Shown: piece by piece, positions 3,415-32,650 of the stretch
Layout: each line of letters opens with the position of its first letter
How positions within the stretch are numbered: the first letter of the stretch is position 1
Source of the DNA: Catajapyx aquilonaris
Lineage: Eukaryota
Assembly (NCBI GenBank): GCA_000934665.2
Contig: JYFJ02002591.1
Coordinates: 1-55,389, forward strand
Direction: 5' to 3'
Length of the DNA stretch: 55,389 nt
Program-made: the position numbers and the translations under genes
The notes under the pieces: generated by a model
Databases searched by the model: none
What the model saw: only the letters and a program-made list of their open reading frames with translations
Told to the model about the DNA's origin: nothing

Positions 3415-5372
3415 AATAACTTATCCTCAGTTATCAAAATGGCTATGATTGTCAACGTTAGGAACGCTGGTTCAAACGATCTTGTAAGAAAAAACTTATT
3501 GCAAAACGACATGCATGTTCCTGCATTTATGTGTGAGAGGTATGCTAAAATCACATGTCGAAATGACAAAATACGCGACTGCGGCAGTTTAAAAATTGAA
3601 ACATGTGACATAAATATGGTGTATACCCATTAATAGCCTACTGTGCCTACAAGGTGGCCTCCAAAAATGCAATGTAAGTTATACAGCAGAGCAATACCAG
3701 AAACTTCTGGCAAGGACGATTGAAGGTCAGTCTTCCTCCCCATCACCTTCAGCTCCAACCCTTCTCTTCCTCTTCCTTCGTGCCCCGACGCGACGGAGGA
3801 CATCAGTGATCTAACGCGATCAAAAATCATCATCTTCGCCCAGAAAGTTAGCCTGAAAGTTGGGTTGATGATGGCAGCTTCTCTAATGGATACTCTCTGA
3901 TGAAGTGATGAGATTCCCTGCTTTGAGCATAGGGTCATTCAAGGTCGTCCTTTTTCACCCCCCAAGCACGAGCAAGTTTTTCAAATTGGGATAGGCCCAC
4001 TTGACTTGAATCCTGGTCTTCATGCTGGTGCAGGAGGACCTGTGATTGTTCTTCCTGAGCCTCTCGCACATCTCCTGTCTGGTGCAAGAGAGGGGACGAG
4101 TGATTGCAGTGAATTAAAGAGGAGGTGATTTGATGTGTTAGCCAACACTTACCCTCAGAGTAGTCATCCATATTCGGTGTCTGCTTCACTGGTTGTTCGC
4201 TGCCAATGTAAAGCACCTGCCCACCAAGTCCAAATGTGTCATTACTATACCACCTGGAGGACATTTTGGGCACATTACAATTATTTATCACTTAAGCTGT
4301 ATTTGTGTGTGGGTGTGTGTGTGGGGGGGATTCATTAGTGACTACCCTTTTCACAGGGGAATGTGTCGAAACTTGTCAAAAGCTGTTTTCAATAAAAGTC
4401 ACTAAACAATATGCAGTTGTCATCATCATCACTGTATCAAAGTGAAACTGTCGAATAAATGCTTCACCTATATTTCTATAGAGCACCAGAAAACTCTGTG
4501 CCCTAATTTCTGAAAATATTCATGTTGCTTCATAACAATATATTCTCACTAATTGCTCCACGTGATTTTTGGTACAGAGAAAATAAAGAATGTATAGTTA
4601 ACGATATGTGATCCAATGTGATCCACCACATGTGAGAAAATGCATTACTTTACGCCTCATTTGCCCTACACATACGAAGAAAAACATACAAAATCACCAT
4701 GTCTCGTGTAAAATTGCCTTAGATCTGATGAGAACAATAAGCAACAGTGGACAATTTCCCATTTTCACCAGCGTTTTACCTAACACGTCAGTCTGATGTT
4801 ACGAGTCTGTTTTGAGTGTCCAGGGTTCCTGGTATCACAGAATCCTGCTCTATATTGCACCCAACTTCGGTAAGGAAGCCCGTCATGGGTTGAGGTGCGA
4901 CAGGAGCTGCAGCTGGTGAGTGTAGCAATTAATAATAATACTTGATACAAAATTTTGAAATCAGGGACAGTTGCAATTATAGCAAATATCATATCTGACT
5001 ATTTTTCAAAGCAACTCACTTGTTACAGCAACGTAATCAAATCAGCAACTTCAATAATGAACTTGATTCAATAAATGACAACGCCATAGTTGTGCATATT
5101 TTTGAATAATTATATTTCAATTAGTCTTGAATAGTACACGATATTTAATTGAGACAATTTTTAAAGCCTAAGTGAATGTATATGTACGTTAAATGTGCTG
5201 CTCTTTCTAAATTCCAATAATGTCTCTCGTATCTTTAATTCACTTTTAAGTTGTAGCTAGCCATACCCGTGTCACTTATTGTCCCATCATCATCAGTGTT
5301 GTAGCCCGAAGTTGTGGAAGCAGAAGCTGTAACTGCAGTCAAGTGGGAGACTTCCAGATTCCCATCGCATGA
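3415..5372 (-). pseudogene. Degenerate duplicate of the 3' part (end of exon 4, exons 5-7, 3' UTR) of the polo-like gene
   Basis: Collinear with 11225-13385. Exon blocks ~5372-5267 (CDGNLEVSHLTAVTASASTTSG), 4912-4780, 4253-4152 (FGLGGQVLYIGSEQP) and ~4074-3848 keep splice sites. No kinase domain; two in-frame TGA. Confidence 0.8.
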
Positions 5373-5380
5373 TATTGCCC

Positions 5381-5720
5381 ACAAGTAGCGCAAATTACCC
5401 TCCTGATTACGGGTAAATTAGTCCATCAAGATACCTCTAATTGCCCGCCACCAGCACCTCAAGACGCATGCGCACAGGAATAGTAGCCCCACCCCAGGCC
5501 TGAGCTCCTCCCCTTGCCTCCCATCTCCTCTCCTCCCCCCGTCCCCCGACCCTCAAAGCAAGCAGAGGGCAGCAGCTGCAGGGACGGCATACTACCAAGA
5601 TCGACCAAGATACTACGGCATAGTATCGTACGGCCACACTAGACCGCACGGCGCACACCGTGGCCTCAACACCCACGGTCTCGCACACCCATCGGTACAC
5701 CCACGACCCACCTTACCTGG
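5381..5720. promoter_or_regulatory. GC-rich promoter-like cassette (NRF1/Ewg-type palindrome, GC-box-like), copy 1
   Basis: ACGCATGCGCA at 5464-5474 and CCCCACCCC; homologous to 32224-32650; lies between the divergently oriented WD40 gene and kinase-tail copy. Confidence 0.55.
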
Positions 5721-5752
5721 AGTCTGTTGGAAGGACAGTGACATAGAAAGTT

Positions 5753-8455
5753 ATGGAAAATAACTACCAAGAGGAGGAGAGGGACAACCAAGCACTGAGA
5801 AGTGACCTTGAAGATGAGCCTGTAAGTGAATGCTCATCGACACTGGCAAGGACGTCATCCATAGAGGTAGATACGATCAGTGATTCAGAATCAGTGGATG
5901 CTGTAGACTCCGACATGACAGAGCTGGGACCATGGCCAGCTTTCAACCTGATGGATTATGAGTCAAGGCCAGAGGGTTCTGATGATACTACTACAACACA
6001 GTCAAGTGATGAGCTGCAGAATAAGCTCAAGAAAGTTGAACGGCAGGTAATGAAAGGGACAGCTATAAGGAAAGAAATCATTCGGGAGCTAGCAAGGCGA
6101 AGTGGGAACGACGAAGACAATCAGTTGTCCAGTGAGATCGACGAAGACAATCAGTTGTCCAGTGAGATCTTCGTACTGGAACCAGTACATGTGCCCACAC
6201 GACAGAAATATCAGCAGAAGGCAACACCAACAATAGTGACATTCCCCTCACCAGAAAGGAAACGCATCCAGGCTCATGCAGGTGCTGTGTTAGACATCAA
6301 GGTGGTCTATCCATACCTGTTTACTGCGTCTGAAGATTGCACCGTTTGCTGCTACCATTGTGATACCAACGAAGTTGTGTGTGTTTACGATGGTCATGAG
6401 TCACCGGTCAGGAGCTTGTTGCTGGACATTCCTACACCCAATGAATGTCAACCGCTTAGACTGGACAACGGGAAGGTTTTCACTGGCTGCCTTGACGAAA
6501 AGTTAAGGCAGTTTGACGCTGTCACTGGAGACATCATAACTGTTGTTGATGTCAACAGAGAAGTTTGGTGCATTGATTTTAAGTGGGGCTACATCTTCAT
6601 GGGCCTCTCAGATGGGCGGCTTGCATCGTATAATCTGGAGGTGAGTTAAAAATTGTGAATGGCCTTTCTAATTTTGTGGGATAATAATTCCAGCATGCTA
6701 CGTGAATTAACGTTTAGCCATTGAAAATATGCCCCTAATAATTCTGGATTGCATTGCAGTAATGAATTAAATTGGGCATGTGGTTCTGGTATTTATATTG
6801 TAATGTAGGCTACTGTATATGCTGTAAAAGTTGATTCTGGTCAAAGTTGGGTTAGTAATAAACCAAAAAAGTAAATCTATCACTTGCCCACACTTACTCT
6901 GGTTCATTACTAAGATACTGTTATAATCAGTTACAAAATAATAGTGTCTGTTATGCAATTCAGTTGCAAAAATACCAGAACTGATAATTTTAAAAAAAAA
7001 GTAATATTACCAAACTTTGATTCACCTGATACACTTGTAATTGAATAATTTTGGGATAGCTAATGCACAATACATTACGGTTTCTTTTTGCAGACTCACA
7101 GCCTGGACCACTTTCCTTATACCTGTAAGACTACTCAACCCATTCTTGGATTGAAGGCTCTGACTGATGCTGACAGGGGAGTTTTGATTGTCGCTCCTCG
7201 TTACAGCGGAATTTCTATGATCGATGCCTTCACAGGTATGATTACCTTCCACCACTAAATTATCATTCACAGATTGAATAATTTAATAAAGGACATTAAT
7301 AGCAAGAGAATAATCTGTGGGACACCTACAGTACTTTTGCTCTTGAAGACTTTTGGTGCAAATAGCAAAGAATGTGACGCCCACAAGAAAAGTGAAGCAT
7401 GCAATTACCTATTAGAATTAGTTCACATCATTGAGATATCAAAATTACTTCGTCTACAGTTGCAATAATTTTTTCCTTACAAATTGCCGCAGCACGAAAG
7501 GCAATTATATTAATTAATTAATTCAATATTCATTAATTTCTTCACAGCATTGTCCCAAGCGTGGGACATTTTCAAAACTGTCTCCCATGATAAGGTTTGT
7601 AGTGTCATGAAATATCCACAGCAGATCCAAAGGCAAGAGAAATCAGAAAATAACATTGTATGTACTGGAAAATTATTTAAATCAATATACTTATTTCACA
7701 TTAATGAAGCATATTGAAATCATTTTAATCTTATCTATGTATGAATCCATGTAAGGAAGAGCAATTGGGCTTGCAATTATTATATTATTTAAAGGTACAT
7801 CCCAGCTGGTTTTCTCTATTATCCAGGTTTTGAATTGACGAGCTTCACACAAAGTCAGCCAGTAAATTCAACAAACTGCATGCTGATTGATGAACATTTT
7901 GTCTACTGTTCCACCATCAGTAAGACGTTGGATTCTGGAGACATCTCCGTAAGTTGACTGTTGTTTTCTCACCGAAAGTGATTTGAACACATGATACGAA
8001 AGTGTTTCACAGATCCGGGGAGATGGTTCATGGGAGTATTCCAATGCCGTGAAGGGGGCAGGTTTCACCAACGCCATGGTTCTGTGGAAGCAATTCGTTC
8101 TCTGTGCCTCTCAGTATGGATACATCTACATATACAAGAAGGTGTGTTTCACTGGTATTTGCAGATTTTTATTATAATTCATAATGATCTTATCAACAGT
8201 GACATTTCTTGTATTCTTTCAGGGGGGGGAGTTTGTTGCCAAATTTCCTGGTGCTGGGAAAATGCTTCGCAGCATTACCATTGCGAACGGAAAGGTACGT
8301 GTCTCTTGTTTGAGTCTCTATCCAGCTTAACAAAATATATTTCCGATTATCCTTGTCCGCAGGTTTACTCTGGAAGTGAAGATGGGTGCGTGGAAATTCA
8401 GGGTCTTCTCAGTATTCCTGAACTGCAATGTTTGAAGTCAGCAGAGTACTTTTAA
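5753..8455 (+). CDS. ZNF106: ZNF106-like WD40-repeat protein (~481 aa; acidic N-terminus, coiled coil, WD40 propeller)
   Basis: Exons 5753-6640, 7094-7235, 7827-7948, 8013-8141, 8223-8294, 8363-8455, all GT-AG and phase-consistent (1446 nt). WD40 repeats (AHAGAVLDIKV..YLFTASEDCTV; YDGHESPVRSLL; VFTGCLDEKLR; KWGYIFMGLSDG; VYSGSEDG) follow the recalled order of the ZNF106 C-terminal propeller; divergent paralog. Confidence 0.75.
6110..6169 (+). repeat. In-frame 30-bp tandem duplication (DEDNQLSSEI x2)
   Basis: gacgaagacaatcagttgtccagtgagatc repeated exactly twice within exon 1. Confidence 0.95.
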
Positions 8456-8850
8456 TTTAAAGGGATCAGTTTTACTCTGGCATCAATTTTTGAAGCCTTT
8501 TTGTGTAACATATGCGGAACAAGTTTACAGGCTGTGAATCTAGTTTTGAAATGTTTCATGTCATTTAATGGTGTGGCGCTGTTTCTAGTATACGTTATTC
8601 AATGAATTTTTACCAAGTTTTACCAGAGTTGGTCAAAATGTATCAAATTATGTTAATTGAGGGCCCAAAAGTAAATTTTTCACACTCTGTCAGCATTCAT
8701 AAGATAGGCCATGATTTAATTTAAATGAATCATTTTTACTCTTTGCATCAGTCTTTGAAGTCGTTTTGTGTAATGATGGAAACGAAGTACCGGCTGTGAA
8801 TGGTCATTTAGTGGTACTGTTTCTAGTACATGTATACTCATTTTTACGTA
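8450..8850 (+). repeat. Diverged local tandem duplication in the 3' UTR (~8450-8620 vs ~8715-8850)
   Basis: Shared ttttactct..gcatca..tttgaag..ttttgtgtaa..ggctgtgaat..gtcattta..ctgtttctagta. Confidence 0.7.
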
Positions 8851-8917
8851 GGTTGCTCTAATTTGATCCAATCATGTACTGACCACTCAGTACTGACCAC
8901 TGAGAAGTGCCATAAAA

Positions 8918-10628
8918 AATGTCAAGTTCCTGTATTTCCATACTCTTTTGTTTAAATGTGTCACTATCTCTAGCATTATTAAAGTAATATTATCATATAA
9001 TTTTAGTTTTGCAATTTTATCAATGTGTAATAAGCAGCCTGAATATCTCTTGTAATTCATATATGTCAACTCAAGAAATAAGCCAATAAAGAATCATGAT
9101 TAAAAATTATTCCTGCTGCCTTTACACTTTTTTTTCCTCATTACAATGGCTCAACCTTGTTGTTTAGTGTTAATGTTTGGCCACCTCGAGTACAACACGT
9201 GCGACAAGTTTTAGCATGTGCATGTACTATTAACCGCAAAAGTAATGTGGCACTGTTACGAGATGGCCCCATGCTAAACAGCAAGTCGCGGATGCCATCA
9301 CAACAGTGCGACATTACTTTTGCGGTTAATAGTACAGTATGCAGCATACTATATCGCTCAAAAAGTTGGGAGACGATTTTGCATTGAATCATTTCCATCT
9401 TTTTGAGCGATATGGTACTGTACATCCAGTAGAAGTGCTTCCTAGCATGGAGCATGCATGGCCACAAGTGCATTGCCACCGCAGTCATTCAAGCGCAGTC
9501 TGTGTGAGAGAGGTGGCATCAAATAGCAATGGAGCAACGACGACACAACATTAAGTTCGGCTTCAAATTGGAGTACACCAGTCATGCACACATTATCTGA
9601 TCACAGAGTCCTTCCTTGTACACTTTGATCAATATCTCAATATGTAATGCACCTCCGTCGCTGTCTCCCCCAATTTGTAGCTGATCTTAATGCATCGTTT
9701 ATGCAACGTCACCGCTCAGTGCTCTCATATGCATTGCCCTGGAATGACTGGGGAAGCGGTGCACCTATGGCCACTCATACTCCACGCTACGAAGCGCTTT
9801 CAGACATATCAACCAAAACTTTCAACCACACCACACATTCACATGGCAAAGGACTTCTCAAGACTACTTATTGACAGGTGAATGTGGAGAACATATAATT
9901 ACCAAGAAAATCATCATGCCAATATTCTGGCTAGTTTGGTTGATCTGGAGGAGGCTAGACACTTCTAGAGAATCCGTAGAAAAGCCAGGAGAAGCCCAGA
10001 ACCTTCTAGAACAGCCTAGAGGAGGACTAGAGAGTGTTGTGTGGCACCACCTAGATCAAGCCAGATCATTCGGGAAGGGAGGAGGGGCGCCCTGTTTGGA
10101 TCCAATATAAGGCTGGGGGGACTGGGAGCCACAGCACAGATTCAACAGAGCACAAGGCAGAGGAACTACTCCGCAGACTACGGCCTAACCGCAGACGACT
10201 TGGACCGTGGATGGAGTCCTGACCATTGTGGCACCCAGGAAGATGCCTCAGCTGGCTGACAAGAGTGGAAGGAGCATTGCCATCACCTTCACTGGGCAGC
10301 CTGCAACTGCACAGGTTGACCAAAGGAAGGAAGACGCCAAGGCTGACAGCCAGGAAGTAGGCCAGCATCAGCAATAGATCAAGTCAATGTCCAGTTTTTC
10401 ACTGTATTACCATACTCTTTTGTTTAAATGTGTCACTTTCTTCAGCATTATTATATTAAGTAATATTACCGTATCATTTTTGTTGCTTTTCATTACTCTG
10501 ATATGTAATAACCAGCCTGAATATCTCTTTTGTAATTTATATGTCAAGAAATAAGGCAATAAAGTATCATGATTAAAATTTTCACTCCCTTTTCACTTTT
10601 TTTCCTCATCACAATGGCTGAACCTTGT
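8918..10628 (+). repeat. Direct duplication of a ~240-bp polyadenylation-like cassette (8918-9160 and 10387-10628)
   Basis: Collinear ccatactcttttgtttaaatgtgtcact...cagcctgaatatctctt...caagaaataag.caataaag.atcatgattaaaa...tttttcctcat.acaatggct.aaccttgt. Confidence 0.85.
9345..9420. repeat. Small palindromic MITE-like element (family also at ~31000-31092)
   Basis: atatcgctcaaaaag...ctttttgagcgatat hairpin; related hairpin aaaaagatggagatgattttgcat...atgcgaaatcgtctccatcttttt at 31.0 kb. Confidence 0.65.
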
Positions 10629-11501
10629 CAGTGATGCTCTGTTTGTTTTTTTGCCAATCCCTGAAATGTAACTCATTTTAAAAGATTGTACTTGCATTTT
10701 TTATCAAGCCAAAAACAATTACACATATATAGTATACATCAACTTGGCTCTCAAACGGGTTCACTAACAATATGTACAACGACAATCAATATCCTTCGTT
10801 GCTTCGACGCCTCATCCGCTTCTTGGCTCCAAGAAACTCCCGTCATCGGAACGGTCCCCAAGTGTTAAACGACACATCCTACCAGATCCTACATCTTAGC
10901 GTGCAACCACCGGTATGGCTGTCTTCACCTTCTTCCGGTCCTTCTTACGCACCTCGCACCTATAGCTCCACCATAACGTGTACCAAACACTTTGGATGCG
11001 CTGAAAATATCGGAGATAATATATTTAATAGTTCAGAAGAATATACTTGTCACTGACTGATGTGTATGTTAACGAGATCACTGCAAACCTCACATTATGT
11101 ACACACATACAATTTTTGCTTGTAAGGTATTTAAAAATTGGGGAAACCTATTTGTACAATTCACATCACGAGTGACAAAAATATAAGTATACTCGAATAT
11201 TTAGGTTTGGAACACACACCAAAATAACTGATCCTCATCAGGCATAAAAATGGCTGTAATTTTCAACTTTAGGAACGTAGTCGTGGTCCCATTAATACGG
11301 TTCCTGCAAGGTGGCCTCCAAAAATGCAACATTCAGTGCAATATATCAGGAACTTTTGGCAACATTAATATCTAACTGGAGGAATGCAAGTGAAGGCCCC
11401 TTCACCCTCAGCTCCAACCCTTCTCTTCCTCTTCCTTCATGACCCGACGGAGGACATCAGTGATCTAACGCAATCATAACGCCTCATCTTCACCCAAGAA
11501 G

Positions 11502-14500
11502 TTAGCGTGGAAGATGGGTTGATGATGGCAGCTTCTCTGGATCATTATGCGACTCCCTGCTTCGAGCGTAAGGGTCATTGAGGGTCGTGCTTTTTTCATA
11601 GCCATTAGAAACCACTTCAAATTGGGGTTGGCCTGTAACAAGTGAGTCTTGGACTACATCATCCTGGTGCAGTAGGAGCTGTGATGGTTCTTCGGGAGCC
11701 TCTCGCACATCATCTGTCAGGTGCAAGAGAGGTGAAGAGTGATTGCAGCGAATAAATAAAGAGCATGTGGTGTGATGGGTTAACCACGCACTTACCCGAA
11801 GAGTATTCATTCAAGACTATTTGTTCGGGGGCTGAGCCGTGAATTCTCTTCAATGGTTGTTCTCCGGCTAAATAAATCACGTGTCCACCAATTCGAAAGA
11901 GGTAATCAGTTGTTCCATCACCTGAGAAACATTTTTGGGACATTATAATTTTTCACTTATTAAAAACAGCATTTGTGTGGGGGAGGGAACTGATTCATGA
12001 CTGACTACCCTTTTCACAGTGTCAAAACTGATCAAAACATGTTTTCAACAAACAACAACACCATCACGACAATTCCCTATAATGGGTAGTCAGCGATGAA
12101 GGGAGACGTAAGTGAATTCCACATAAATTATGAACTAAATTAAAACTTGTCAAAATAAAAGTATAAACTTTCCCACCACTCACCCCCCAACCCTGCCCAT
12201 CTCAGATGACGGACAGGGTGGCCCGAGCCCAACATGACATATTTTTCAATAAAAGTTACTAAAGGGGCGTTCAGACCCGAGAAGAATATTGAGTAACGCA
12301 ATGTCAGTTCCTATTGAATTGTCTGAACATTTTCCCAATAAGAAGGGAGAAAAAATTATAGTTTTAAAATATTGACAAAAATAATGACAAACAACCAATG
12401 AGAACATTATGACCCAATTGCTGCTGCAAAAGCAGAACGGATGAAAGCTGAAAATTTTAATACGCTACCACTTAATCTTAATGGATCACTAACATAGTGC
12501 TCTATCCTCAAAACAATATTTTTAAAATTAATTTGTGGAATTCGTGGTAGCAATTTCTCTCAGAAGACAATTAAAGATAAATGAAATTATTTTTGAACAC
12601 CACCACTCCAGGCATGGAGCTTGCTTCTTACCCCCTTAGCATGGTACCTCGCTATTCTAGATTTTAAAACTGAAATGTATAGTGCAAAGCACACTTCTTT
12701 ATGGGTGTATAGTCACAGCCCATTCGCTATACACATGTTACAAGCCCAAGAGGGGCGCGGGCCCGGGGCGGCGCACCCCCCCCCCCCCCCNCCCCCCCCA
12801 CACGCGCGAGTACGATACGAGTATTAGCCTGTACCTTTCTGGCTGGCATTATGTCGTTTCGAACCAAATGTACTGTCTTGCTTCTCTGACAGGTGTCCAT
12901 CAGCGTCAGGAACCTCTTTATTGCAGCCACCCTCTGTAAGGACTCTTGTACTATGTTGAGATGTCACAGGAACTGCAGCTGGTGAGTGTAGAAATTGATA
13001 ATATTTTTGATGAGCTCTACGAAGCACTGTTGAAATTATAGAAATTATCATCTGGCTATTTTTCAAAGCAACTGAATGACGACGCCATTGGGCATATTAT
13101 ATAATTATATTTCAATCGGGCTTGAATAGCAAATGATATTTAATTGAGATATAATTTTTCAAGCCCAAGTGAATATAAGTATACGAAGGATTTACTGATC
13201 TTTTATTTATTCAATAATGTGTCTCGTATTTTAAATTCACTTTAAGCTGTAGCTATAGCCATACCAGTGTCCCTACTTTTCCCATCATCAGGATTTTGGG
13301 GGGCTGTGTCGCAGCCTGGAGTTGTGGAAGCAGAAGCAGGAACTGCATCAGTCAAGTTGCTGATTTCCAGATTTCCAGGACAATCGCCTCCTAGCATGAA
13401 GGGATCAAAGAGAGCTTCTACAGCACTCGGACGCTTCCAGGGATTCTTATCTAGGAGGCGCGTGATAAGGGAGTTCGCTAGATTGCCCACACTCGTCGGA
13501 ATGTAATAGTCATTCTTCAGTACGAGCTTGTGTATCTCTGACCTTGTACGACCCTGAAACGCTCGCCTCCCCACGAGTAGCTCGTATAGGATACACCCGA
13601 TTGACCACATATCCGATGAGAATGTTTGCTTCTTGGTCCCTCGATGGGCTTCAGGAGACATATAATAACACGTGCCACATCGCATGCTGTATATGGGAAA
13701 GAAAACGTCATCGTCAGGGTCAGTCAAAACTTCAGGTAAATCTTGTTCTAGGATCTAGGGTATAAGCTATAAGGGGAGACCTGAGATAGTTGGCACACTT
13801 TTTACGTTTAATTTTTTTCTGATGTCAGTTAAGACTTATTCACTGTAATTTTTACATTGATGAATACTTCAGACACGTGCTCATACAGTATGTATGTTAC
13901 ATTTTTGAATTTTAAATATGCTATCCACTAAATATTATTTTAAAAACCTCGGCACATGCTCGATGCCTTGTGATTTTGTCATCTTTCCAAAAATGAAAGG
14001 GCCAATGCGTCGAAGGCATTTCACCAACATAGACTACTTGACCTCATAGCAAGGTTTGTAGCACGGACGTTTATCATAAAGACAGTAGTGTATACAGAGT
14101 GATGGAAACTTTTTGCGAAGCACCTGATACCTATTTACTTTAAAGGAAATGATCATTACATTCCGAACGACCCTCGCATATATTATACTGTACACACTTT
14201 TTTTTCTCCTTTTCAATTACCTCCCCATGACGGGATGGGAGATGGGGAGGGCTGGCTTTATAGGGCTTGTGCTACTCATGACTCCTATACTCCTATACTC
14301 CTATACTCCTATACTCCGCCTTGCCGTCAATCATGATCATACTGCATCTCAGTCAGAATGTATTTTTAATGTCCTACAAAATCAATGAAATTAAGAATAA
14401 ATTTACACACTATAGACTCTTACCGCAACTTCGCGTCGTCTGTTGCTCGCACTGCCATCCCGAAGTCCCCAACTTTAATGTCATGAGAATTGATAAACAA

Positions 14501-15144
14501 ATTCTCGGGCTTCAAGTCCCGATGGATTATATGCTTCTGATGCATATATCTCACTGCCACCAGTACCTGCCGGAGGATGTATCTAACTTCGGGCTCAGTA
14601 AACACTTTTCTCACGCGTTGCACATCCCTGAATTCCTGCAATGTAAGCGTGGGTCAAGATCGCGTCAGACCATATAGTGTATATAAGCACGGCAGAGAGC
14701 AACTACATACCCCTCTGTTGCATAGTTCCATCACCATATAAACGTTCTCGTCATCTTCAAAAGAACTATGCAGCTTTACAATGTGGTAGTTGTTCATTTC
14801 TCGGTGTATTGAAATCTCATTATCCATGTGCACTCTTCGATTATTTGTAAGTGATTTCTTACTTGTTATCTTAGCTGCATAAAGCATGTTTGTGTTCTGT
14901 TCCTGCACTACGTGGCATAGGGCATATCCACCCTAAAAGTGAAGATAATGTCAGATGGGTTACCAATATATCATCGCTATTTTCAATCGCAATGTTAAGG
15001 TGTTAGTGACATGCCAGTGATAGCCATCGCTAAGAAAATTCTTCTCAAAAGTGTCAATTTCGGGACAGCGTAATGGTTTAATGGCTTTTTTGTTCATGTA
15101 TAATTTTGTTTGCTTCATGTTGTTTTCGTTGTTGTTTGTAAAGT

Positions 15145-15216
<72 letters not shown>

Positions 15217-16504
15217 CATAGGCCCTACCCCGTGATAGGCGTCCTTGGGCCTTTTATGATGGGATCTTCCTGTCATTCACCAACTTTATTCATTTTCCTG
15301 TCCTATATGATGGGCTTTGAATGTGGGAGGAAACGGGAGAAACCCGAGAAAACATACGCGAACATGGAGAGAACCCATCGAAACTCTATCCACATAAGCA
15401 TCCTCTGTCCGATTCAGGAATCGAACTCGCGACCTTAGAGGTGGAAGGCTGCTGTGGCGCTAACCACTACGCCACCGTGTCCCCCATTTGTTTGTAAAGT
15501 GTAGCTGCACATCACCCGAGAATTTTAACTTGCTCTACTTCACTAAAAACTTGTCACTAGTCCCACAGTATGTGGACATACTCATTGTGACAGTTCATAA
15601 GGCCTTATAAATACAGTATACTGCAGTGTATTCAAGTTAACTGGGACTTTGAACAATATACAGTTGCTTTATTGTTCAAAGTTCCAGTAAACAGTGATGG
15701 GGTGTATCGTCTAGATACCAAAATGAGTATCTTTTATCTCATCTACATAATTTGAAATTGTGTATCTACTTGCATCTAATTATAGCTACTCTACGTAGAG
15801 TATCTGCGTGGCATCATCAGATACTTTTCCAGGTACTTTTAGGTGATTTTCTTGTGATTTTCCTTATGAAAACATGATCCCCCTACACAGAAATAATAAT
15901 GAAGTGTTGTATGCATATTGATATTGCATAGCGGTGCTGGTGCCATATAGTGGTAAACTGGTAATGTCAAAAGTAGTTATAGTGTGCCTGTCAGCTGTGA
16001 CTCGGTGCCAGAAGCTATATGGTCCGCTGAGCTCTGTGAGCACTGCTCAGTGCTCACAGACAAATTACTGTACAGAGGTTTAATTATTTTTTCGTTACCA
16101 AACAGAATAATAAAACATAGCGAAATTGATAGCATCACTCATGGCAGTAGACTGTAGAGTAGCTTATTATACTACAGTGCCAAACTAATGAACTATTGAA
16201 CTATACATATGTTTTAATCCACGGTGAACCAGAGTATAATGTTATTGAGGATGACAAATAAGTCAAAAGAAATATATTCGCACGCGCTTGCGAGTCGGTA
16301 TATCGTAGGCTATATATGGAGTTGTATGGAGTGTCTCAGAAAATGTATCTTATCTACTACTAGATACAATGTCGAAAGAGTATCTGGTGCTATAGTATAG
16401 TACAGCATCTAGATGGTAACATTTGTATCTATAGTATCATTCTGATCTAGATACTTTTTGAAAGTATCTTCCCCATCACTGCCAGTTAACTTAAAATAAC
16501 GGCT

Positions 16505-16586
<82 letters not shown>

Positions 16587-16757
16587 TCTCTCTCCGCAAT
16601 GTGGCTCGCCACAAATAAACACTTTTTCTACAAAGTTACAACTTGAAACACTTACCTCTCCCAGAAACGTTTTGGTATAGTAAGTCTTGTTCCTAAAAGG
16701 ATCACGGATGTGTGGCGGAATATATTCAGGTTTCTCCACTTTCTCCCGCGTAGCCAT
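11502..16757 (-). CDS. polo: Polo/PLK1-derived Ser/Thr kinase lacking the Polo-box domain (~479 aa)
   Basis: Exons 16757-16656, 14932-14711, 14635-14424, 13686-13265, 12978-12835, 11921-11796, 11713-11502, all GT-AG, phases 0,0,2,1,1,1, total 1440 nt. Motifs LGEGGYALC (PLK-type Cys), YAAK, NEISIH, HRDLKPEN, DFG, CGT..YMSPE, DMWSIGC, and post-kinase GGDCPGNLEISNLT resembling the polo/PLK1 P..LP.SCLT segment. Divergent paralog, not canonical polo. Confidence 0.88.
12263..12730 (+). mobile_element. Interspersed repeat (PIF/Harbinger-like left end), second copy inverted at ~51845-52318
   Basis: Begins aggggcgttcagac; collinear reverse-complement match to 51845-52318. Confidence 0.7.
15149..15487 (-). 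mobile_element. V-domain tRNA-SINE with (ACT)n tail and 17-bp TSD
   Basis: A/B-box head, V-domain-like aatgtgggaggaaacgggag...gagagaac, TSD ttgtttgtaaagtgtag on both sides, (AGT)n microsatellite ~15145-15214. Confidence 0.85.
15692..16481. mobile_element. hAT-type MITE
   Basis: TIR cagtgatgggg / ccccatcactg; 8-bp TSD ccagtaaa / ccagttaa; subterminal gtatct/agatac repeats. Confidence 0.85.
16504..16594. repeat. (CT)n microsatellite in intron 1 of the kinase
   Basis: Direct observation. Confidence 0.98.
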
Positions 16758-17293: not shown

Positions 17294-17419
17294 GGGTGGA
17301 ATTTTCGTCGTATACTACTATAGTTACTTTTAACTTAGCAGTATCACTGTAATGCAATGGTACTGCTAAGTTAGCAGTAACTATATAATATGTAGTATAG
17401 TACGACGAAAACTCCACCC
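17294..17419. repeat. ~125-bp palindromic MITE-like element
   Basis: gggtggaattttcgtcgta...tagttac..taacttagcagta / tactgctaagtta..gtaacta...tacgacgaaaactccaccc. Confidence 0.8.
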
Positions 17420-19012: not shown

Positions 19013-19224
19013 TGAACACAATAAATTCCCTTAACGCCAACTCGTTTTGGAGAATAATTATTATCCTTCAAGTGTTTTGAGGCTGCCTTGTGCGACATTG
19101 TATGTTACACTCACTCATCTGACACCTTATATAACAAAAAAAAATGTTGCATGCACTTTACTCATCATAATATCAGGGAGCATAATTATAGTACTACATG
19201 TATAGTATATGCTCCCTGATAATA

Positions 19225-22200: not shown

Positions 22201-22435
22201 CCAGAAAGCAACTGGCAACAACTTACGCATGAGGCGCCTATGGTCTTAGCACCTTATTGATTCCGTCCAAGTTGGGTCCTGATGACGGAAGAATGTATGG
22301 GACGTCCGTTTAGATATTATAGCCTCTCCGGTATTAGCTATCCGACTGACCATGCGATATAGCCAAGCCCAACAAACCCTCCAACCCGTTGCTTCCCAAC
22401 CCAAACATAATAAAGCATAGCCAATATAAATAATA
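19225..22435. repeat. Diverged ~570-bp direct duplication (19225-19790 and 21868-22435) with coding-like remnants
   Basis: Shared ttcgactcagct..gtcgagtagattcaggaaatg, tatccgactgaccatgcgata, ccgttgcttcccaaccca.acataataaagcatagccaata; both translate to IGYALLCxGWEATxWRVCW on the minus strand. Confidence 0.8.
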
Positions 22436-23821: not shown

Positions 23822-23918
23822 AGTCAAAACACAAAAAAAGGATCCTCTGATGAAACCCAGAGAATAGTCAAAACACAAAAAAAGGATCCTCTGATGAAAC
23901 CCAGAGAATAGTCAAAAC
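23822..23918. repeat. Exact 44-bp tandem duplication
   Basis: agtcaaaacacaaaaaaaggatcctctgatgaaacccagagaat x2 plus a partial copy. Confidence 0.95.
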
Positions 23919-25324
23919 CAGTAAACCTAAATAAAGTCAGTAATTGATAACAGAATTAACTTATATACGATATGCTTACACATCGGTAGTTAACTTGAAA
24001 TACGAATACTCAATCGTATATAATACTCAAATTATTCACTCTCACTATTTTGTCTCATCCTATTTGTCTCGCACTATTTTTGTCACATTTCCTGCTACAG
24101 TAGCAGAGGCAGAGCAGAGGGTGCTCGACCATGGGGTGCTCGTTGCTTTTTCCTCAGAAGCACTTTACTATGCAGCTCCAAAGAGGCCTGTAATATGAGG
24201 CACAGTTAGGAATGACTTACAAAGCATTAGCCATGTATTCAGTGCTCAACTTAATAGCCAGGATTGTGATTCAAGTGATGGCCTGATGGGATGAGTGAAA
24301 ATTGGATGGGCTGAAATAAATATGGCCAATTTAGTTCCAGTAGTATACTATTGGCCCTTTTGTAGCAGTGTGGCTTATTCTCATGCAGTCATGATACACC
24401 AGACCCAGTCTAAAAGGCAAATGCCACACAAATATAACACTGTTTGGCGACAATTTTTAAAAATGTATTACAATAGTTACTAAATATGCTGCAAATATTA
24501 CGTTACTTTTGTTACATTATACAATTTCTGAGCATAACATCACATTAGGCCCCTATATCAAAAGTTATGGCAGAGATAAAACAGTAAAATACTATTGCCC
24601 CTCACCGTTACCGTGAGCAGTATGACAACACATTATGGAATGTCCATACAGGAATGGTTATCCTGGAGTCTGGAGACAATCTGAATGTTTAAAAGATAAT
24701 ACTATAGGAAGGTCTGCAACCCCGGTTTCCTCCGGATCTTATAGGCCTACCCATCTGCACATTTATTGTGTAGTTTGAAATTCTTATGAAACTATTCGGA
24801 ATGGTTGTATGAAAGTAAACTGGAGGAACTCTCCGATTATGTAGATATTTACAATACTTCATCAGACATAACTTGAGATTAAATCTTATCTATTAATTTG
24901 AATGGCTATACCTGGCCCTTATTTTTAAATGTAGTAATTTTATTTTACAATACAGTACACTTATTACTTTCTGCTGCACTTTGTTCCCCTTATTCAGTTA
25001 AATTATTTTTTCCTTTAGTTCGCCTATTTTAGCATTCAGGTCCTCTTTGTTTTACGAAGACATTTCTGAATGTAAAAAGTGTGATTCACTCACTGATAAT
25101 AATATGAAACATTATAATCCTAAATACCGTAAAGGTGCGGTAGTAGGAAATATATTGAAAAGTGATGTTCATCCACTGAAGACAGAAATAATGTAGCATT
25201 ACAATCTTAAATACCTAAGTTAGTTAGATGGTCCAACGACCTACGAGTATTTTTGTATGGACACTACCAAACACTTGGAAAGTTACATTTTATAAGCATC
25301 ACTTACGCCACACATAACCCAGTA

Positions 25325-25678
25325 AGATTATTTATTTATTTATTTATTTATTTACCCCAAGTTACCCTTTCGGGCTTAAGGGGGGACGCTATTATGTCCT
25401 TGTATATTTTTGTACATTTTTTTTTTTTAACGAAGCACCCGGGCCCACGGGCATGGTGACTGGGAGGGGATGTGCAAAGTGCAAGTGCAATGTCTCAAAC
25501 GGTACATTTTGTGAACTCCCCCGGGTTAGTCTTTCGGAGATTCCACCCGAGACGAAGCCAGAGACGACCCAACTCTGCACGAGATGAAGGGGGGAAAGCC
25601 CGGGCTTGGGTTCGAACCCGGGACTCTTACATCCGTGGGCGCATACGTTTCCGCAGCGCCACTCCGTCTCCCCAACCA
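25325..25678 (-). mobile_element. tRNA-SINE family C with (TAAA)n tail
   Basis: B-box gggttcgaaccc, A-box region ggagtggcgctgcgg; second copy at ~39410-39680. Confidence 0.8.
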
Positions 25679-25951
25679 GCAAGATCATTCACCATTTTAA
25701 AATCTTCAGACACTTAATGGCATTTTTAAAATGATCAGCACTGTATATATAGTATAAAATCATATATGGGCAACTAACCTCCCGCTGCACTCTTCCATTG
25801 GCAATGGGTATGGGCTTCTTCCTTGATGGTTTGTTACATGAGTCATCGGTCTTTAAAAAGGTTATTTTATGGTAATTAACCGTATATGGTTTAGGTGACA
25901 TTGTGGGAATATAACCTTACTTTTTCAGTCCTAATATTCTTGCATGCTGGA

Positions 25952-28900
25952 TCATTGCTGGGACGGCGTAGGTTCTGGGAAGGCAACATATCTCCTTTTT
26001 TTGATTGGCAACGTGCTAGCATGAATCAGCTTGAATTGATCTTGCTTAACATATTGAGCCTCTCTCAAGTTATCCAGGTACATTTGTAGCTCTGTTTTAG
26101 CCTCTACCCAATCCTTGGAATGTTTCGTACTCGGCTTCTGTATAACAAAATAATATTAGTAAGTTAATATACCTGCGTATAACATCTTCTACCAGAACTT
26201 TCATTCAAGTGAGTATTTTAGATGTATATTTTCACGACAGTTAATAACAGTATACATATAGTTCATGCTTATCATGGATGCTGAAAGGTATAGACTATAT
26301 ACCTGAATGGTGCTGACATCAGTAGATAGGGCTATAGGCTTGACATATTCCTTTTTCAATGTGGCCCTCTCATACTGGCCACCAAAAAACCTCACATCGC
26401 AGTGGGTTTCATTTCTCTCCATCACCTTGGCTGGCCAGTATGGGTGTCCCTGCACTTTGGCCAACGCGACTCCATGAGGAGGATCACACAATTGTGTGTA
26501 CCACTTCTCAGGCCTTTCAGCTGATAGCCGACAGCAATTAGCGCACAAAACAATTTGTCGCAAGTCATATTGGCACTCCTGAAGCATGTCCAGGGCTCGG
26601 ATACGAATATCAAAACCTGCGGATAAGATGAAACATAACTCTATGCGTACTATAATATCTATAGTTTTGTCTTAAGAAATGCTGCATTAACCCATATGTT
26701 CCTATAGCGTCCTATAGGACGGGGAGGAAAAAAATTTATTTCTCGCAGTTATGATTATAAATCACAGATTAAGGGAGCTGAACTTCTTCATGAAAGTCTA
26801 TAAGTTACTCTATAGTGGGAGAATGCATATGTTAGGCGCAAACCCCGAAAACGGCCATTGAGCGAAAAAACCTAGAATTTCGCGGAATGCTCTTTTCAAA
26901 ACAGCCAGACCCGGAAATGATCTTTTTTAAAAGGCCAGAACGCTTTTCCGGACTACATAAAAATGTCAGGATGCGAATTTAGTGTCGTGGCTGGTTCAGA
27001 AAACGCCCAGAACGCGTTGTAGAATTTTCTTGGTACCGGCAGTACACACCACGCCAAGTAGATATAACAACAATAAGGTGATTTACTTCCAGTAAGTTAT
27101 ATATACTTGACGTAGTGGGTAACAAGAAACTGCCACAGCGCGTTATGGGCTTTTTCTGAGCCAGCCACGACACTAATTTCGCGCCCTGACATTTTTGTGT
27201 AGTTCATAAAACTGTTCTGTCTTTTTAAAGAGCATTTCGCGAAATGCCCTTTTTTCCGCTCAATGACCGTTTTCGGGGTTTGAGCCTCACATATAAATCA
27301 CATTTACGTGATTGCAACAGCCACAAATACAAGTTGAATGTTGGGAAATTTGCCAATTTCAGAACTGGCGCGATTGAGTAACTATTTCCTTGGATTATAA
27401 ATATACAAGGTGGTCGAAAAATAATGCCTCGATTCTAAAACCCTATAACCGAAAACTTGTAGACATACCATATCTTCATGATTTAAGTTTTGAAATGGTA
27501 AGAAAAGTCTAAAGTTTTGGTCTGGCTATAGTTTGTTTATGAGCTTCATTTGTCGCTCGGAAAATGTAAATACTCTAATCGGTGTCGTGCCTAACCCGGT
27601 CAGACATGTCTGGAGTCACCAAATTGTGATCTTATCCCTTAGGTGCTGGAGATGCCGGATGTATTCACCATATAACTTGTTAGTACCTGTATCTTCACAA
27701 TAAAGTCAATCGGGGTAAGATCTGGGCTTCTGGGGGAGCTACAGGCATTGGCAAACTTCTCATTCAAGACGTTGCACACTGGGAGGCTGAACAAATGAAA
27801 CCTGTCTACGGCATGTTTGTTTCATGCTGGATGAGGCGATTTTTTACTTGAATCATTAAGAACAATGTGTGTGGTGTAAAGATCCGGGATATCCATCACC
27901 TACATGATAATATCGCAACGGTAGCTCCATATACGTATAATAATAATTATATTGAGCGGGTTTGGCACACTGCCGAGGGACAAAGGGGGCTATAGAAACA
28001 AACTATAAGTTGAGACCAAAACCTTAACTTAGCATTTCAAAACTTAAGTCATTAAGATATATGTCTACAAGTTTTCAAGTTATAGCGTTTTAGAATCGGG
28101 GCATTCTACTTCTATATCTTCGAAAAATAAATACAGTGTATGGCTGTTGCAAGAAAGGTTGTTAAAAGCCCATACAATATTTACATTGTTGGCCCCTATA
28201 TGAGTGGTGAATGGCAGCAAGGGATGGAAACACAATGGTGACGCCCTACAATCCACTAATACCTTTGATAGCCGTTAAAGTAACTGCTTAAATATTATGT
28301 AGATTAGTGCCAACAACAACCCGGACAACAAATCGGAGAGGTATTTTCCCTGTATATAGCCATAGTGTTTAGTGTTACATATAGTGCAACTTGGTACCCA
28401 TATACGTTTCTAGATGAAAAAAGAGAAACTTTGTCTTGGAAAAATTTATGAAACCCGATATAATGGGCTTAAATACCTGAATTATTGGGATATAATACGA
28501 TTCCATCATTTCTACCAGCACTGCACCATTCCATGTGAGAATTGCAACATTGCATTGCATATAAAGTGGAGTAATGAGTGGAGAGAAAAGTATAGCCTAC
28601 ATAAGGATTGTCCTATATAGCGTCCTATATATAGGACGCCTTGTAACTTCTGTTGCAATTAAAATTTTACGCTGAGCTATTTTTTCTTCTGCCTTCTAAC
28701 GCATGACTTAAAATATTATTGAAATTATTATTAACTTACCTGTATCATCAGTATAGATCAACCTCAAGAACAAATTGGTTAAATGAGAAGTGAGGCCAAT
28801 AAATTAGTGAGAGGTGTTCAACTTACTCCGCTCTTCTTTCCTCCTCCTTCCTCTCTGCATATATACTTTGGGCTGCCCATAATATATGGCAACATTATGA

Positions 28901-30747
28901 GCAACAGTTTTGGCATCCGCCAAGAATTCATCGAGTGTGTTGTAAGTCATGCTTTCAGCCTTCTTGGTCATTTCCACAACGTCTACATGTTTGTATACCA
29001 TGCTGTTATAGCATACGGTAACCTGCTCAGGATCTACGACATGGGTACTGATTTCTGCTGTTACCTGGCAATTAGGAAGACTATAGGGCAAGCTACAGGG
29101 CACCTACAAAGATAAAATACATGCAACAAGTCATGTGACTATACAGTTACTCTACCATGATAAAAATCTAACTATTAGTTTAATAACACACATATTCCAA
29201 AAGTCTCTTGCAGGTAACATGCAGGAGGTAGTTCAGGAGGTCTTTCGATATTTCCATTGTTTGGATCTTGTTGCTTCCCTGTAAGAAAATGGGTTCAGCG
29301 TGCACAATAATGGTTTCTGTCATCACGTATAGAGCTTGACTAACCTATATGCTACAGTATAGAACTAATGAATTAATAGCACTGTGCAGTATGTACTGTG
29401 TTACAAGCAAGCAATCAGTAATTTGTCACAATTCATGCATTCATGCAGTGTGACGCAGGAGATTTGCAAAAATTCACAATATTTATGATTTTTTTTTTAC
29501 TCACTGCGCAGATGCTGCATAGGGAATTATGAGCATCCACAGGCGTTGTTTCCATCACGCACCTTTCGTGGAACACCCTGTGACAGGTGTAACACTCGAC
29601 CACGTCTCCAGGCGTGTGACACGAAAAGCAGTACCAGTCATGAAGACTTTTATCCAACTGAAGTATAAAATATACGAAGCATAGTCTGTTAATAATAATA
29701 ACTATAATTATCTTAATAATAGTAACAACAATAAACCTTACTTCTTTTTGTGGCATGGAATAGATCTCTTGAGTTTTTGAGTCTAATTTCATTTCCACCT
29801 TGCAAATCAACCCCTCACATGAGCTCCATTGCAGCTGTTCTTTCACATAAGTTTCTGAAATTCAAAGTGGCAATTTCAGTCGTTGAAGATGTCTAAATTT
29901 TAGGAATGTGACTTCCTCACCTGATTTCTCAACTTGACATTATTTAATGTTAGAACAGTGGAATGTGACCTTAATGTACCCTAATATTAAAGGAATATTG
30001 TCCAGTATAAAAGTTTGTTCAGTCGCATAAGATTTCCATGCAGTGTAGGCCTGATGCATATAGGCCTACACATGTTATTGTATGTAATTAGATTAATTAA
30101 TAGATACCCCGTGATAGGCCTCGTCCTTTGGCCTTTTAGGGGATCATCTTTTTAAATACCGACTTTAATCATTTGCCTGTACTCCGATGGGTTTTTATAG
30201 TAGCAGGAAACGGGAGAGCCCCGAGAAAACCACGCGAATACGGAGAGAACCCATCGAAACTCAATCCACATAAGTACCCTCTGTCCGACCCGGGGATCGA
30301 ACTCGGGACCTCAGAGGTAAAAGGCTGTGGCCCTAACCACTACACCCTCTGTTTAGTAAAGACAATTTTTTGTGGAATGCAGCAATTATTCTGATAATGA
30401 CAGGATTTCAATTTTGGCTGCAAGAATCTCAAACTTTCATCACCTAACAATGTTTACTAAAATACTGTATATACTGTCAGCTTGGAGAATTATCGGAGAA
30501 ATAGGCCTACCCCATGTATAATAATATTCATCATAATTATAGCTTATTGTGAACATTTCCTTAAATGATTTCCTTACTCCTCTAATGAGTGTACATGTTA
30601 AAAATCACCTTTTTCTGGATCATTCTGGCATTTCATTGCATCATAAATCCTTTCAAGAGTTGGTTCTTGCTTCTGGCTCTTGATTTTTTGGATAGCCACC
30701 CAGAGCTTCACCACCGTTTGAGGATCTGACTTCCTTGACAGAACCAT
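25952..30747 (-). CDS. ZMYND11: ZMYND11/BS69-like chromatin reader (winged helix-PHD-bromo-ZnF-PWWP), no MYND as assembled (~422 aa)
   Basis: Exons 30747-30609, 29854-29742, 29657-29505, 29278-29192, 29103-28827, 26616-26303, 26137-25952, GT-AG and phase-consistent (1269 nt). Motifs LWVAIQKIKSQKQ, HDWYCFSCHTPGDVVECYTCHRVFH..C, EFLADAKTVAHNVAIYYG, LCANC...CDPPH, AKVQGHPYWPAKV...DVRFFG, W.EAK.EL. Confidence 0.88.
26827..27294. mobile_element. Palindromic MITE in ZMYND11-like intron
   Basis: aggcgcaaaccccgaaaacggccattgagcg / cgctcaatgaccgttttcggggtttgagcct plus inner IR tgtcgtggctgg..cagaaa / tttctgagccagccacgaca. Confidence 0.8.
27405..28115 (-). mobile_element. Deleted Tc1/mariner (maT/DD37D-like) element
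   Basis: Imperfect long TIRs (atgcctcgattctaaaac..aaaacttgtagacata / tatgtctacaagtttt..gttttagaatcggggcat); internal PRSPDLTPIDF motif on the minus strand near 27700-27735. Confidence 0.75.
30095..30350 (-). mobile_element. V-domain tRNA-SINE
   Basis: Same family as 15149-15487 and 46049-46332. Confidence 0.85.
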
Positions 30748-31691
30748 ATTTGAGCACGATGTACTTGATTTCTGTTCCCTGAGAATAATGGCATTAATAT
30801 TTATGTTAAATGAATTTATTGGCATATAACTTATATGTTAAAAGATTAAGTTATATAATATTATATACCAAGCACTTCTTGTAAAACTGGTAATTATACA
30901 GTAGCCTACTTCGTATTGCACGACAGACTTTACCAAATAAATGGCTAAAATCATGGTACACGATAGGCTACTGTAGAAATATTGTTTCGGAGTATCAGTT
31001 AGTATATAGCTAAAAAAGATGGAGATGATTTTGCATACCGTATGGTTTCAATGCGAAATCGTCTCCATCTTTTTGAGCAACGATATAGTATATAGGCCTA
31101 CATAAAACATAATAAGCACATAAGCAACAGTATTCTTCCTCCTGAAACATGACAAAATTGTAAGCTTGACATTCCTTAAAACATCTTAACTGGCTTAACC
31201 GCCTCAAACATGGCAGCACTTACAATAAGGGAAAATATCCAAGAAAAAGTCATTTTTTTATCAGACTTGAAGAGCCAATTATGATAATATTTACGCACCA
31301 GGTACACAAGTAGTACCATACCAGTTTCACATTACAGGGCTTTCATTTGAAAAATGTCTTCAATTCCCTACAATAATAATCAAAAACCAAAAATTATTTT
31401 TACGCACGTTTCTAATTTTTGGACCACCACTTCCCACAGCGTTTCACATTGCAGAAAGTGGAGATGTCTGGGAAGCTGTGTTTAAGACATCTGACACCAC
31501 GTAACAGAACGCGGGACGTCGACCCTATCCCCTTATCTTTGCTGCAGCCTCAATACCTCCGAAGTGGGTTCAGCTTCTTGAGGAAATGAGTGTGTGGAAT
31601 AAAAGAGATAAGAGGAGCAGAAATACTGGCAGAAAGAGAGGAACTCATGTCAGAAAAATATTAGATGGGTGAGTAAGTGATCATTACTGTT

Positions 31692-32204
31692 CGCCATACC
31701 TCTATCCAAAACGTTCGGTGGGGTTATCAACTGCACAGTGAGCAACCAGCAGCCAAGCATCCAACTGCAACCTGTAAGAAACCAGTTATCAACCACTGCC
31801 CATCAGTATAGACTATAGCCAGTGGCAACCACATTCCACAGGTCAAGTGTTACTAACCAGAACACCGTCAGTGGAAGTTTCTACCCCTCGTCGGCGCTCC
31901 AGGACATGATCAGAAGTATTCTGCTATGCTGAAGCAGGTACGCACCCCGCCATACCTCTTTCCAAAACGTTCGGTGCCAAAGGGGGTTATCAACTGCACA
32001 CTGAGCAACCAGCAGCCAAGCAACCAACTGCAACAAGAAACCAGTTATCAACCACTGCCCATCAGTAGACTATAGCCAGTGGCAACCACAGTCCACAGGT
32101 CAAGTGTTACTAACCAGAACACCGTCAGTGGAAGTTTCTACCCCTCGTCGGCGTTCCAGGACATGATCAGAAGTATTCTGCTATGCTGAAGCAGGTACGC
32201 ACCC
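31692..32204. repeat. ~256-bp near-identical tandem duplication in the 5' region of the ZMYND11-like gene
   Basis: cgccatacctct.tccaaaacgttcggtg...gaagcaggtacgcaccc twice (31692-31947, 31948-32204). Confidence 0.95.
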
Positions 32205-32223
32205 TACGCAGCACATATAACCT

Positions 32224-32650
32224 ACAAGCACGCAAATTACCGACTTGTTGCTGGTTAATTAGTCCACCAAGTAAGGGCCATCACTCTCACATACCTCCAA
32301 TTGCCAGCTGGAATGTTCCATCTCTTCCCAGGCCAAGCGTTCCACAGCCGTAATGCCTGGTAATGCCTCGCCACCTTTGCCGCCACCATCCATTCCAAAC
32401 GCATGCGTACTGGAATCGTAGCTTGGCCCCGCCCCAGGTCAGAGCTCCTCCCACCTCCCCTCCCCACCCGGTCCACCCCTTCCCCCGCCTTCCCCTTCTT
32501 CCCCTTATCCTCCCCAACAGCATGGCCGCCATTGCAGCATACCATCGGTAGTTCTGTTCAACTGGAAACGGCGGCGGCGGCATCGGCAGGCATCTCCATC
32601 AGGTATGAGTACCCATCGGTAGGCCTACACCCGAACCCGGCGATGGTCTT
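32224..32650. promoter_or_regulatory. GC-rich promoter-like cassette, copy 2 (probable ZMYND11-like promoter/first exon)
   Basis: ACGCATGCGT 32399-32408, GGCCCCGCCCC 32425-32435, minus-strand donor gag|gtatgt near 32295; homologous to 5381-5720. Confidence 0.6.

Follow-up and report, generated by a model that had tools for sequence, protein, structure and literature searches.

The polo-box is the defining part of Polo kinases, in which it both targets and auto-inhibits the enzyme. For the crustacean Daphnia pulex, eleven PLK homologues have been reported; six are partial PLK1-like copies, which the authors regarded as pseudogenes or as what partial duplications had left behind (Schurko et al. 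2009, PMC2680839). Here we describe a stretch of 55,389 nucleotides of Catajapyx aquilonaris (contig JYFJ02002591.1, hereafter the window, meaning the whole stretch analysed), which carries a Polo-family kinase gene without a polo-box, a ZMYND11-type gene without a MYND finger, and a WD40 gene without zinc fingers; genes, repeats, and domains were all read within this 55-kb window. On balance, we lean towards the view that these are three lineage-specific and fast-evolving gene copies, made at the DNA level and truncated at their 3' ends, which are probably functional, independent of one another, and located in a gene-poor and repeat-rich stretch.

The kinase gene is located on the minus strand and consists of four exons separated by phase-consistent GT-AG introns, for a product of 326 aa. 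Its features are as follows.

16656–16757, minus strand: kinase coding exon 1 (ATG at 16757–16755), with an N-terminal stretch that aligns with the PLK1-type N-terminus
14711–14932, minus strand: kinase exon 2, with the glycine loop, the catalytic Lys, and the alpha-C Glu
14424–14635, minus strand: kinase exon 3, with HRDLKPEN and DFG
13242–13686, minus strand: kinase exon 4, with the activation loop, the C-lobe, and the linker (stop codon TAA at 13244–13242; possible alternative donor after 13265)
13206–13211, minus strand: AATAAA, 31 nt past the kinase stop codon, as read from the sequence

Matches in PDB, the PLK1 or polo names of the top relatives, and a quick maximum-likelihood tree all place this Ser/Thr kinase domain in the polo clade. 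The structures nearest to exon 4 are PLK1 kinase domains (3e-20), followed by Aurora A (5e-14), and those nearest to exon 3 are PLK2, PLK1, and PLK3 (1e-17 to 1e-15), the next family standing at about 1e-13. An exhaustive HMMER search with exon 4 against 1.84 billion representatives returned 52,095 matches at E<=0.001 and 466 at 1e-10, and no closer relative was found among these representatives (0 matches at E<=1e-30; top identity in a single stretch, 45%). A word-based homologue search with the same exon retrieved five bacterial kinases only, a blank which is weak evidence. Named relatives are PLK1 or polo proteins of coral, cyst nematodes, Trichoplax, Strongyloides, snail, and others.

The sequence of the kinase is strongly diverged. 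When the spliced product was compared with 155 fetched proteins, identity reached 40.8% at most (over 287 residues); in a 15-row alignment it amounts to 38–42% with PLK1-type proteins and to 33–42% across the aligned relatives, as compared with 38–66% (median 51%) among eight PLK1-type proteins bearing a polo-box domain (PBD). The tree was built from 41 rows; relatives were kept if their alignment reached a length of 240, up to a maximum of 40, and the other fetched proteins were dropped. In it, the window kinase is sister (SH-aLRT 88) to a PLK1-type clade of 12 rows (97), with the PLK4 type coming next (85), and the PLK1-type crown that leaves the window kinase outside includes a brown-alga sequence. 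Because a canonical Polo with a polo-box is to be expected in every animal, this kinase is almost certainly a paralogue.

All residues needed for catalysis are kept in the 15-row alignment, namely the Gly-loop, the catalytic Lys, the alpha-C Glu, HRD, the catalytic Asn, DFG, SPE, and the later Asp and Arg. The regulatory positions are not: at the activating threonine of the T-loop the window kinase has a Met, where the 14 aligned relatives have Thr (11) or Ser (3), and at the second regulatory column it has a Glu, where 11 of the 12 PLK1-type rows have Ser or Thr. We take these two columns to be those of human T210 and S137. In addition, HRDLKPEN replaces the HRDLK(L/V)(G/A)N of the family.

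The 3' end of the kinase gene can be read in two ways. Either the frame closes at the TAA, followed by the AATAAA listed above, or the donor after 13265 is used, from which the reading phase continues into three more open exons, with a predicted product of 495 aa. A segment made of the final ~130 nt of kinase exon 4 and ~2 kb of 3' flank or tail is moreover present twice in the window, which bears out the partial duplicate noted in the initial annotation. The corresponding features are:

11502–13026, minus strand: optional three-exon tail (T1 13026–12835, T2 11921–11796, T3 11713–11502), putative and read from the sequence only
11222–13377, minus strand: copy B, the end of kinase exon 4 with the 3' flank or tail (blastn), interrupted by a high-copy repeat at 12273–12718
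3414–5364, minus strand: copy A (blastn), which repeats part of the kinase 3' end and lacks kinase exons 1–3

No family match was found for the three-exon tail. Copies A and B are in direct orientation and 71–81% identical (blastn E values of 5e-98, 2e-52, 5e-22, 2e-20, and 1e-9), and the WD40 gene sits between them. Since copy A has no kinase exons upstream and differs from copy B by indels of 4, 13, and 8 nt within the putative second tail exon, it is a dead fragment. The repeat at 12273–12718 is absent from copy A and is a later insertion into copy B; an inverted copy, 86% identical, is located at 51879–52317 (summed contig depth above 10,000).

Sequencing data from two samples were available, as four DNA-type contig runs (one sample) and one small run (X5), the kind of which is unrecorded. 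A long G run with the single N of the window lies at 12775–12810, inside a putative tail intron, and gaps at this position in contigs of both the X1 and X2 runs make it a likely weak point of the assembly. X5 contigs do not cover the kinase exons or copy A, which says nothing on expression. Summed contig depth is about 30 for the kinase gene and copy A and 60–120 for the WD40 gene; it is no measure of copy number.

No polo-box was detected in the window, in agreement with the claim that a polo-like gene lacks its PBD here, a statement which covers the window only, as exons beyond it would escape. Among 113 open reading frames (ORFs) from the stretch that includes the tail, the duplicate, and the WD40 region, Pfam detects POLO_box (PF00659) in none. 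We also built a polo-box profile from the C-terminal halves of seven fetched polo kinases, which recovers 18 of the 155 fetched proteins (these seven included). Over the 1907 ORFs of the window with a minimum length of 20 aa, its best E value is 0.65, and none of the ~25 best matches listed falls in the tail; at Z=1, it gives −2.0 bits for the spliced tail and −1.7 bits for the copy-A ORF. In a shuffle control of the blastp comparison with polo-box regions, 32 of 100 shuffled versions of the tail scored at least as high as the tail itself, against 7 of 100 for the copy-A ORF. One short motif of this ORF resembles the beginning of a polo-box but was rejected, as neither the profile nor the shuffle tests supported it. 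Among the 15 best relatives of the kinase, Pfam detects POLO_box in nine, PLK4-type boxes in two, and neither in four, one of these four being marked partial by its source and another having a 624-aa cluster mate.

The second gene corresponds to the following feature:

25952–30747, minus strand: ZMYND11-type gene with seven coding exons (30747–30609, 29854–29742, 29657–29505, 29278–29192, 29103–28827, 26616–26303, and 26137–25952)

All of its introns are GT-AG with consistent phases, and the product of 422 aa (stop codon TGA at 25954–25952) ends ~60 residues past the PWWP domain, with three AATAAA ~600 nt downstream. It contains the PHD-bromodomain-PWWP reader array of ZMYND11 (BS69). According to Pfam, the bromodomain is above its cut-off (32.3 bits, 9.6e-8; cut-off 21.7), PWWP is slightly below (24.8 bits versus 25.6), the SAMD1_WH winged helix scores 24.4 bits against a cut-off of 24.5, and PHD is also below (16.5 bits), with a complete C4HC3 pattern. 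In PDB, the PWWP exon matches human ZMYND11 (7e-19) better than ZMYND8 (1e-13), as does the bromodomain exon (2.5e-4 versus 2e-3), and we counted ~39% identity to ZMYND11 in the alignment of the PWWP exon. The Atlas look-up returned generic PWWP clusters only, and the word-based search with the PWWP exon gave eight candidates, none of them significant, a blank which is again weak evidence.

The claim of a ZMYND11-like gene without a MYND finger likewise holds: the best PDB match is ZMYND11, and a regular-expression test, which a very degenerate finger would escape, found no whole MYND pattern in any frame of the window. Half-patterns were limited to the PHD finger of the gene itself (29583–29630) and to two plus-strand strings of one half each.

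The third gene is located on the plus strand:

5753–6640, plus strand: WD40 exon 1 (ATG at 5753), with an acidic N-terminus and the first propeller blades
7827–7948, plus strand: WD40 exon 2; when it is joined to exon 1 at the canonical sites, the window sequence goes out of frame (X5 pieces border at 6638/7824)
8013–8141, 8223–8294, and 8363–8455 (stop included), plus strand: WD40 exons 3–5, phase 0 and GT-AG, read by eye against the ORF frames

The protein stops at 8453–8455, directly past the last blade. The initial annotation had called this gene ZNF106-like, without zinc fingers. The latter part stands, as there is no usable C2H2 pattern in any frame of the window (the pattern occurs only twice, within the PHD finger and at 53681–53749). 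As for the name, the similarity found is of a generic WD40/beta-propeller kind and nothing in it favours ZNF106 over other WD40 proteins: Pfam WD40 scores 23.5 bits, below the cut-off of 27, the PDB matches are designed WD40 proteins (7e-9) and spliceosomal WD40 proteins, and the Atlas look-up gives generic WD40 clusters, ZNF106 not being among them. A word-based search with residues 160–296 gave 133 candidates, none of them significant, which is weak evidence as well. The blades may be collinear with those of vertebrate ZNF106; this is a lead and not a test, and the ZNF106 label is putative.

Contigs of X5 align with this gene in four pieces (5850–6138, 6140–6638, 7824–7948, with unaligned ends on both sides, and 8793–9092), which end at the exon 2 donor and just past an AATAAA at 9085–9090. 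Because these borders match the pattern of spliced and polyadenylated RNA, we infer that the WD40 gene is expressed, from the contig borders of a run whose kind is unrecorded. The borders at 6638/7824 agree with a transcript carrying one additional C ahead of the donor, and such a transcript would be in frame. Taken together with the frameshifted junction, they point to a one-base assembly error, or else to a frameshifted allele or copy. Within exon 1, the DNA-type contigs of X1 and X2 show five differences from the window in 85 nt (6412–6497), where X5 has the letters of the window; these differences could reflect a second allele or a second gene copy.

These are the only three genes with recognisable domains in the 55 kb, and all of them lie between 5.7 and 30.8 kb. 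The window is eukaryotic, with a G+C content of ~41%. With the three genes and the interval of 3.5–16.8 kb that extends from the partial duplicate to the kinase gene set aside, none of the 128 ORFs of at least 68 aa reached a Pfam cut-off (two chance-level matches), and an Rfam scan of the window gave a single match, a tRNA gene at 48666–48733 on the plus strand (RF00005, 34.4 bits). The remainder consists of repeats, namely tRNA-derived short interspersed elements (SINEs), tandem arrays, and foldback-type inverted repeats, some with summed contig depths in the thousands. Three SINE copies (15226–15479, 30098–30346, and 46079–46335) share 80–84% identity, with a summed contig depth of ~48,000. 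The first one is located in intron 1 of the kinase gene and the second one in intron 1 of the ZMYND11-type gene; these intronic copies are ordinary high-copy transposons. A foldback-type structure at 34470–37857 has two arms of 496 nt (34470–34965 and 37362–37857), which are 100% complementary, 2.4 kb apart, and made of ~145-nt tandem units (seven copies at 34488–35525).

Two pairs of short cassettes occur in the window:

8918–9160, plus strand: 3'-end cassette 1 (AATAAA at 9085–9090; an X5 piece ends at 9092)
10386–10628, plus strand: 3'-end cassette 2, 80% identical to cassette 1
5445–5548, plus strand: short upstream cassette, ~200–300 nt upstream of the WD40 ATG, containing ACGCATGCGCAC
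32380–32487, plus strand: short upstream cassette, copy 2, which precedes the ZMYND11-type ATG by ~1.6 kb and is on the strand opposite to that gene

The duplicated polyA cassette noted in the initial annotation is thus found again, with 80% identity between the two 3'-end copies (E 1.6e-53) and an AATAAA in each. A second X5 contig, ~94% similar, ends at 10574 inside cassette 2. Between the two cassettes, the first part of an ORF at 10189–10374 on the plus strand resembles the C-terminus of small heat-shock proteins (Pfam HSP20, E 0.059); the ORF has no PDB match, the HSP20 likeness being a weak hint, and may be a decayed gene fragment sharing its 3' end with the WD40 gene.

The claim of a shared promoter cassette fared less well. 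Its upstream part stands to the extent that a similarity of ~105 nt (lengths of 104 and 108 nt) exists near two genes, with 74% identity over 111 columns (E 1.5e-9), and that ACGCATGCGYAC, which is part of it, occurs exactly twice in the window, two matches being reached in 3 of 100 shuffles. However, this is the only shared upstream element found in the window, there is no copy near the kinase gene, and, as both cassettes are on the plus strand and their two genes face opposite ways, their orientations relative to these genes are opposite. A 257-nt unit is present twice in tandem at 31692–32204 (93% identity), adjoining the second cassette.

The three genes contain three (kinase), six (ZMYND11-type), and four (WD40) GT-AG coding introns, so they are not retrocopies, and the claim of duplication at the DNA level agrees with this. 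Local copying is also borne out by the 2-kb kinase duplicate and the duplicated 3' cassette, which would be by-products of the same process, and the proposed loss of an interaction module finds support in that each gene is without the C-terminal docking module of its family. Most simply, ordinary gene duplication at the DNA level accounts for these observations, with no evidence for a special chromosome or a drive locus. Beyond their proximity, no functional tie is seen between the three genes, which are probably not one co-regulated system.

The gene copies are probably functional, as their reading frames have long stayed open. In particular, the frames of 326 and 422 codons and the catalytic and zinc-ligand residues have remained intact at ~60% protein divergence, which argues for purifying selection on the kinase and on the ZMYND11-type reader, since loss would otherwise be expected. 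Lacking a polo-box, and having Met at the T-loop Thr position and Glu at the second regulatory Ser, the kinase may be an enzyme that is neither docked to phospho-primed partners nor activated by the usual upstream kinase. The short ZMYND11-type reader, in which the PWWP aromatics are kept, would recognise the same mark on histones but recruit none of the usual co-repressors, and the WD40 propeller protein without zinc fingers would be a third, independent gene copy.

Several points weigh against the interpretation as functional gene copies. The tree is a quick version, in which the window kinase is on a long end branch (0.85) and inside none of the starred clades. The canonical WD40 junction (6640|7827) shifts the frame, with a stop after three codons, so that this gene is perhaps defective in the window. 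The species might have no other copy of the ZMYND11-type gene, which would then be an orthologue whose short form is specific to the lineage instead of a paralogue, and paralogy is unproven for both this gene and the WD40 gene. Moreover, the putative functions of untethered kinase and decoy reader are drawn from domain content alone, the models of the kinase and ZMYND11-type genes are predictions from the sequence, and the full-length canonical parents that these copies would imply were not located in a view limited to 55 kb.

The alternative that survives best, which we nevertheless consider unlikely, is that the locus consists of relics of partial gene duplication, with pseudogenes that are silent or dying, comparable to the partial PLK1-like copies of D. 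pulex, which are reported to be pseudogenes or remnants (PMC2680839). Copy A (3414–5364), a dead fragment without kinase exons, is what such a process leaves behind, and the frameshifted WD40 junction, the indels of 4, 13, and 8 nt between copies in the putative tail exon, and the abundance of transposon copies in the region fit as well. However, frames of 326 and 422 codons run over four and seven exons without any stop or broken splice site, despite protein divergences of 58–62% (kinase) and ~60% (PWWP exon of the ZMYND11-type gene). Kinase catalytic residues, PHD ligands, and PWWP aromatics are all kept, and the X5 contigs at the WD40 gene end at exon borders and past an AATAAA, like spliced RNA.

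Somewhat more doubtful is the possibility that these are ordinary single-copy orthologues, the ZMYND11-type and WD40 genes being the normal short genes of this lineage and neighbours by chance. The ZMYND11-type gene has the entire N-terminal reader array in canonical order, and the searches for relatives came back empty, with no sign of MYND-bearing versions among relatives. For the kinase, however, this explanation is very unlikely, as a polo-box is found in 9 of the 15 relatives compared and a T-loop Thr or Ser in 14 of 14, as the kinase lies outside the PLK1-type crown, and as canonical Polo is expected in every animal.

We regard as improbable a more elaborate account, in which the locus would belong to a family of regulators stripped of their modules, with at least two constitutively active, untethered Polo kinases that have neither polo-box nor activating threonine and bear an acidic residue at the second regulatory site, and a MYND-less histone reader competing with the full-length protein, all serving together in the germline or a special division and located in a lineage-specific, repeat-rich, and perhaps sex- or germline-limited region. 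If true, the presence of two such kinases in the same genome would suggest a lineage-specific function in cell division or the germline. Finally, the initial annotation proposed a gene nursery, on a chromosome that is sex-limited, B, or germline-restricted, or at a drive/suppressor locus, with a shared promoter and with germline products that are dominant-negative or re-targeted. This is very improbable. In its favour, the region has few genes, many repeats, and signs of local segmental copying, a partner-docking module is missing from all three products, and two genes have a short upstream cassette in common. However, this cassette spans ~105 nt only, is absent from the kinase gene, and has opposite orientations relative to the two genes.

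If the copies favoured here are kept naturally, a catalytically complete Polo-type kinase without a polo-box or an activating threonine would be a natural experiment on an untethered kinase, and a MYND-less ZMYND11-type reader, if true, would be a natural split of histone reading from co-repressor recruitment. If the copies are silent, the locus would be a further example of the partial regulator duplicates known in crustaceans. In a titles-level literature search, natural polo-box-less paralogues were not found in arthropods, the work found on kinases without a polo-box being on budding yeast.

Compared with PLK1/Polo (2ou7, 2yac, 3d5x; PLK2, 4i5m), the window kinase has a polo-family kinase domain with all catalytic residues, and the PLK1-type N-terminal stretch and the beginning of the interdomain linker are recognisable in its alignment, but it differs by the missing PBD, the Met instead of the T-loop Thr/Ser, the Glu instead of Ser/Thr, the HRDLKPEN motif, and an identity of 38–42%. 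The ZMYND11-type protein shares with ZMYND11 (BS69; 4ns5, 4n4g) the order of winged helix, PHD, bromodomain, zinc knuckle, and PWWP, as well as the PHD ligands and PWWP aromatic positions, but it has no coiled-coil or MYND finger; presumably, it also has ~14 additional residues between the bromodomain and the zinc knuckle. The WD40 protein may resemble ZNF106 in having a WD40 propeller after an acidic or coiled region, and differs from it in having no zinc fingers at either end and in stopping past the last blade.

A parallel is found in POLO-F to POLO-K of D. pulex, which are reported to be incomplete and rearranged duplicates of the PLK1 clade, like copy A and the truncated architecture described here (Schurko et al. 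2009, PMC2680839). The Daphnia copies are reportedly not intact, with stop codons, rearrangements, and no expression evidence, whereas the window kinase has an uninterrupted four-exon frame and a complete catalytic core. Partial polo duplicates are thus already known in a crustacean, and the catalytically complete copy without a polo-box is a variant of them.

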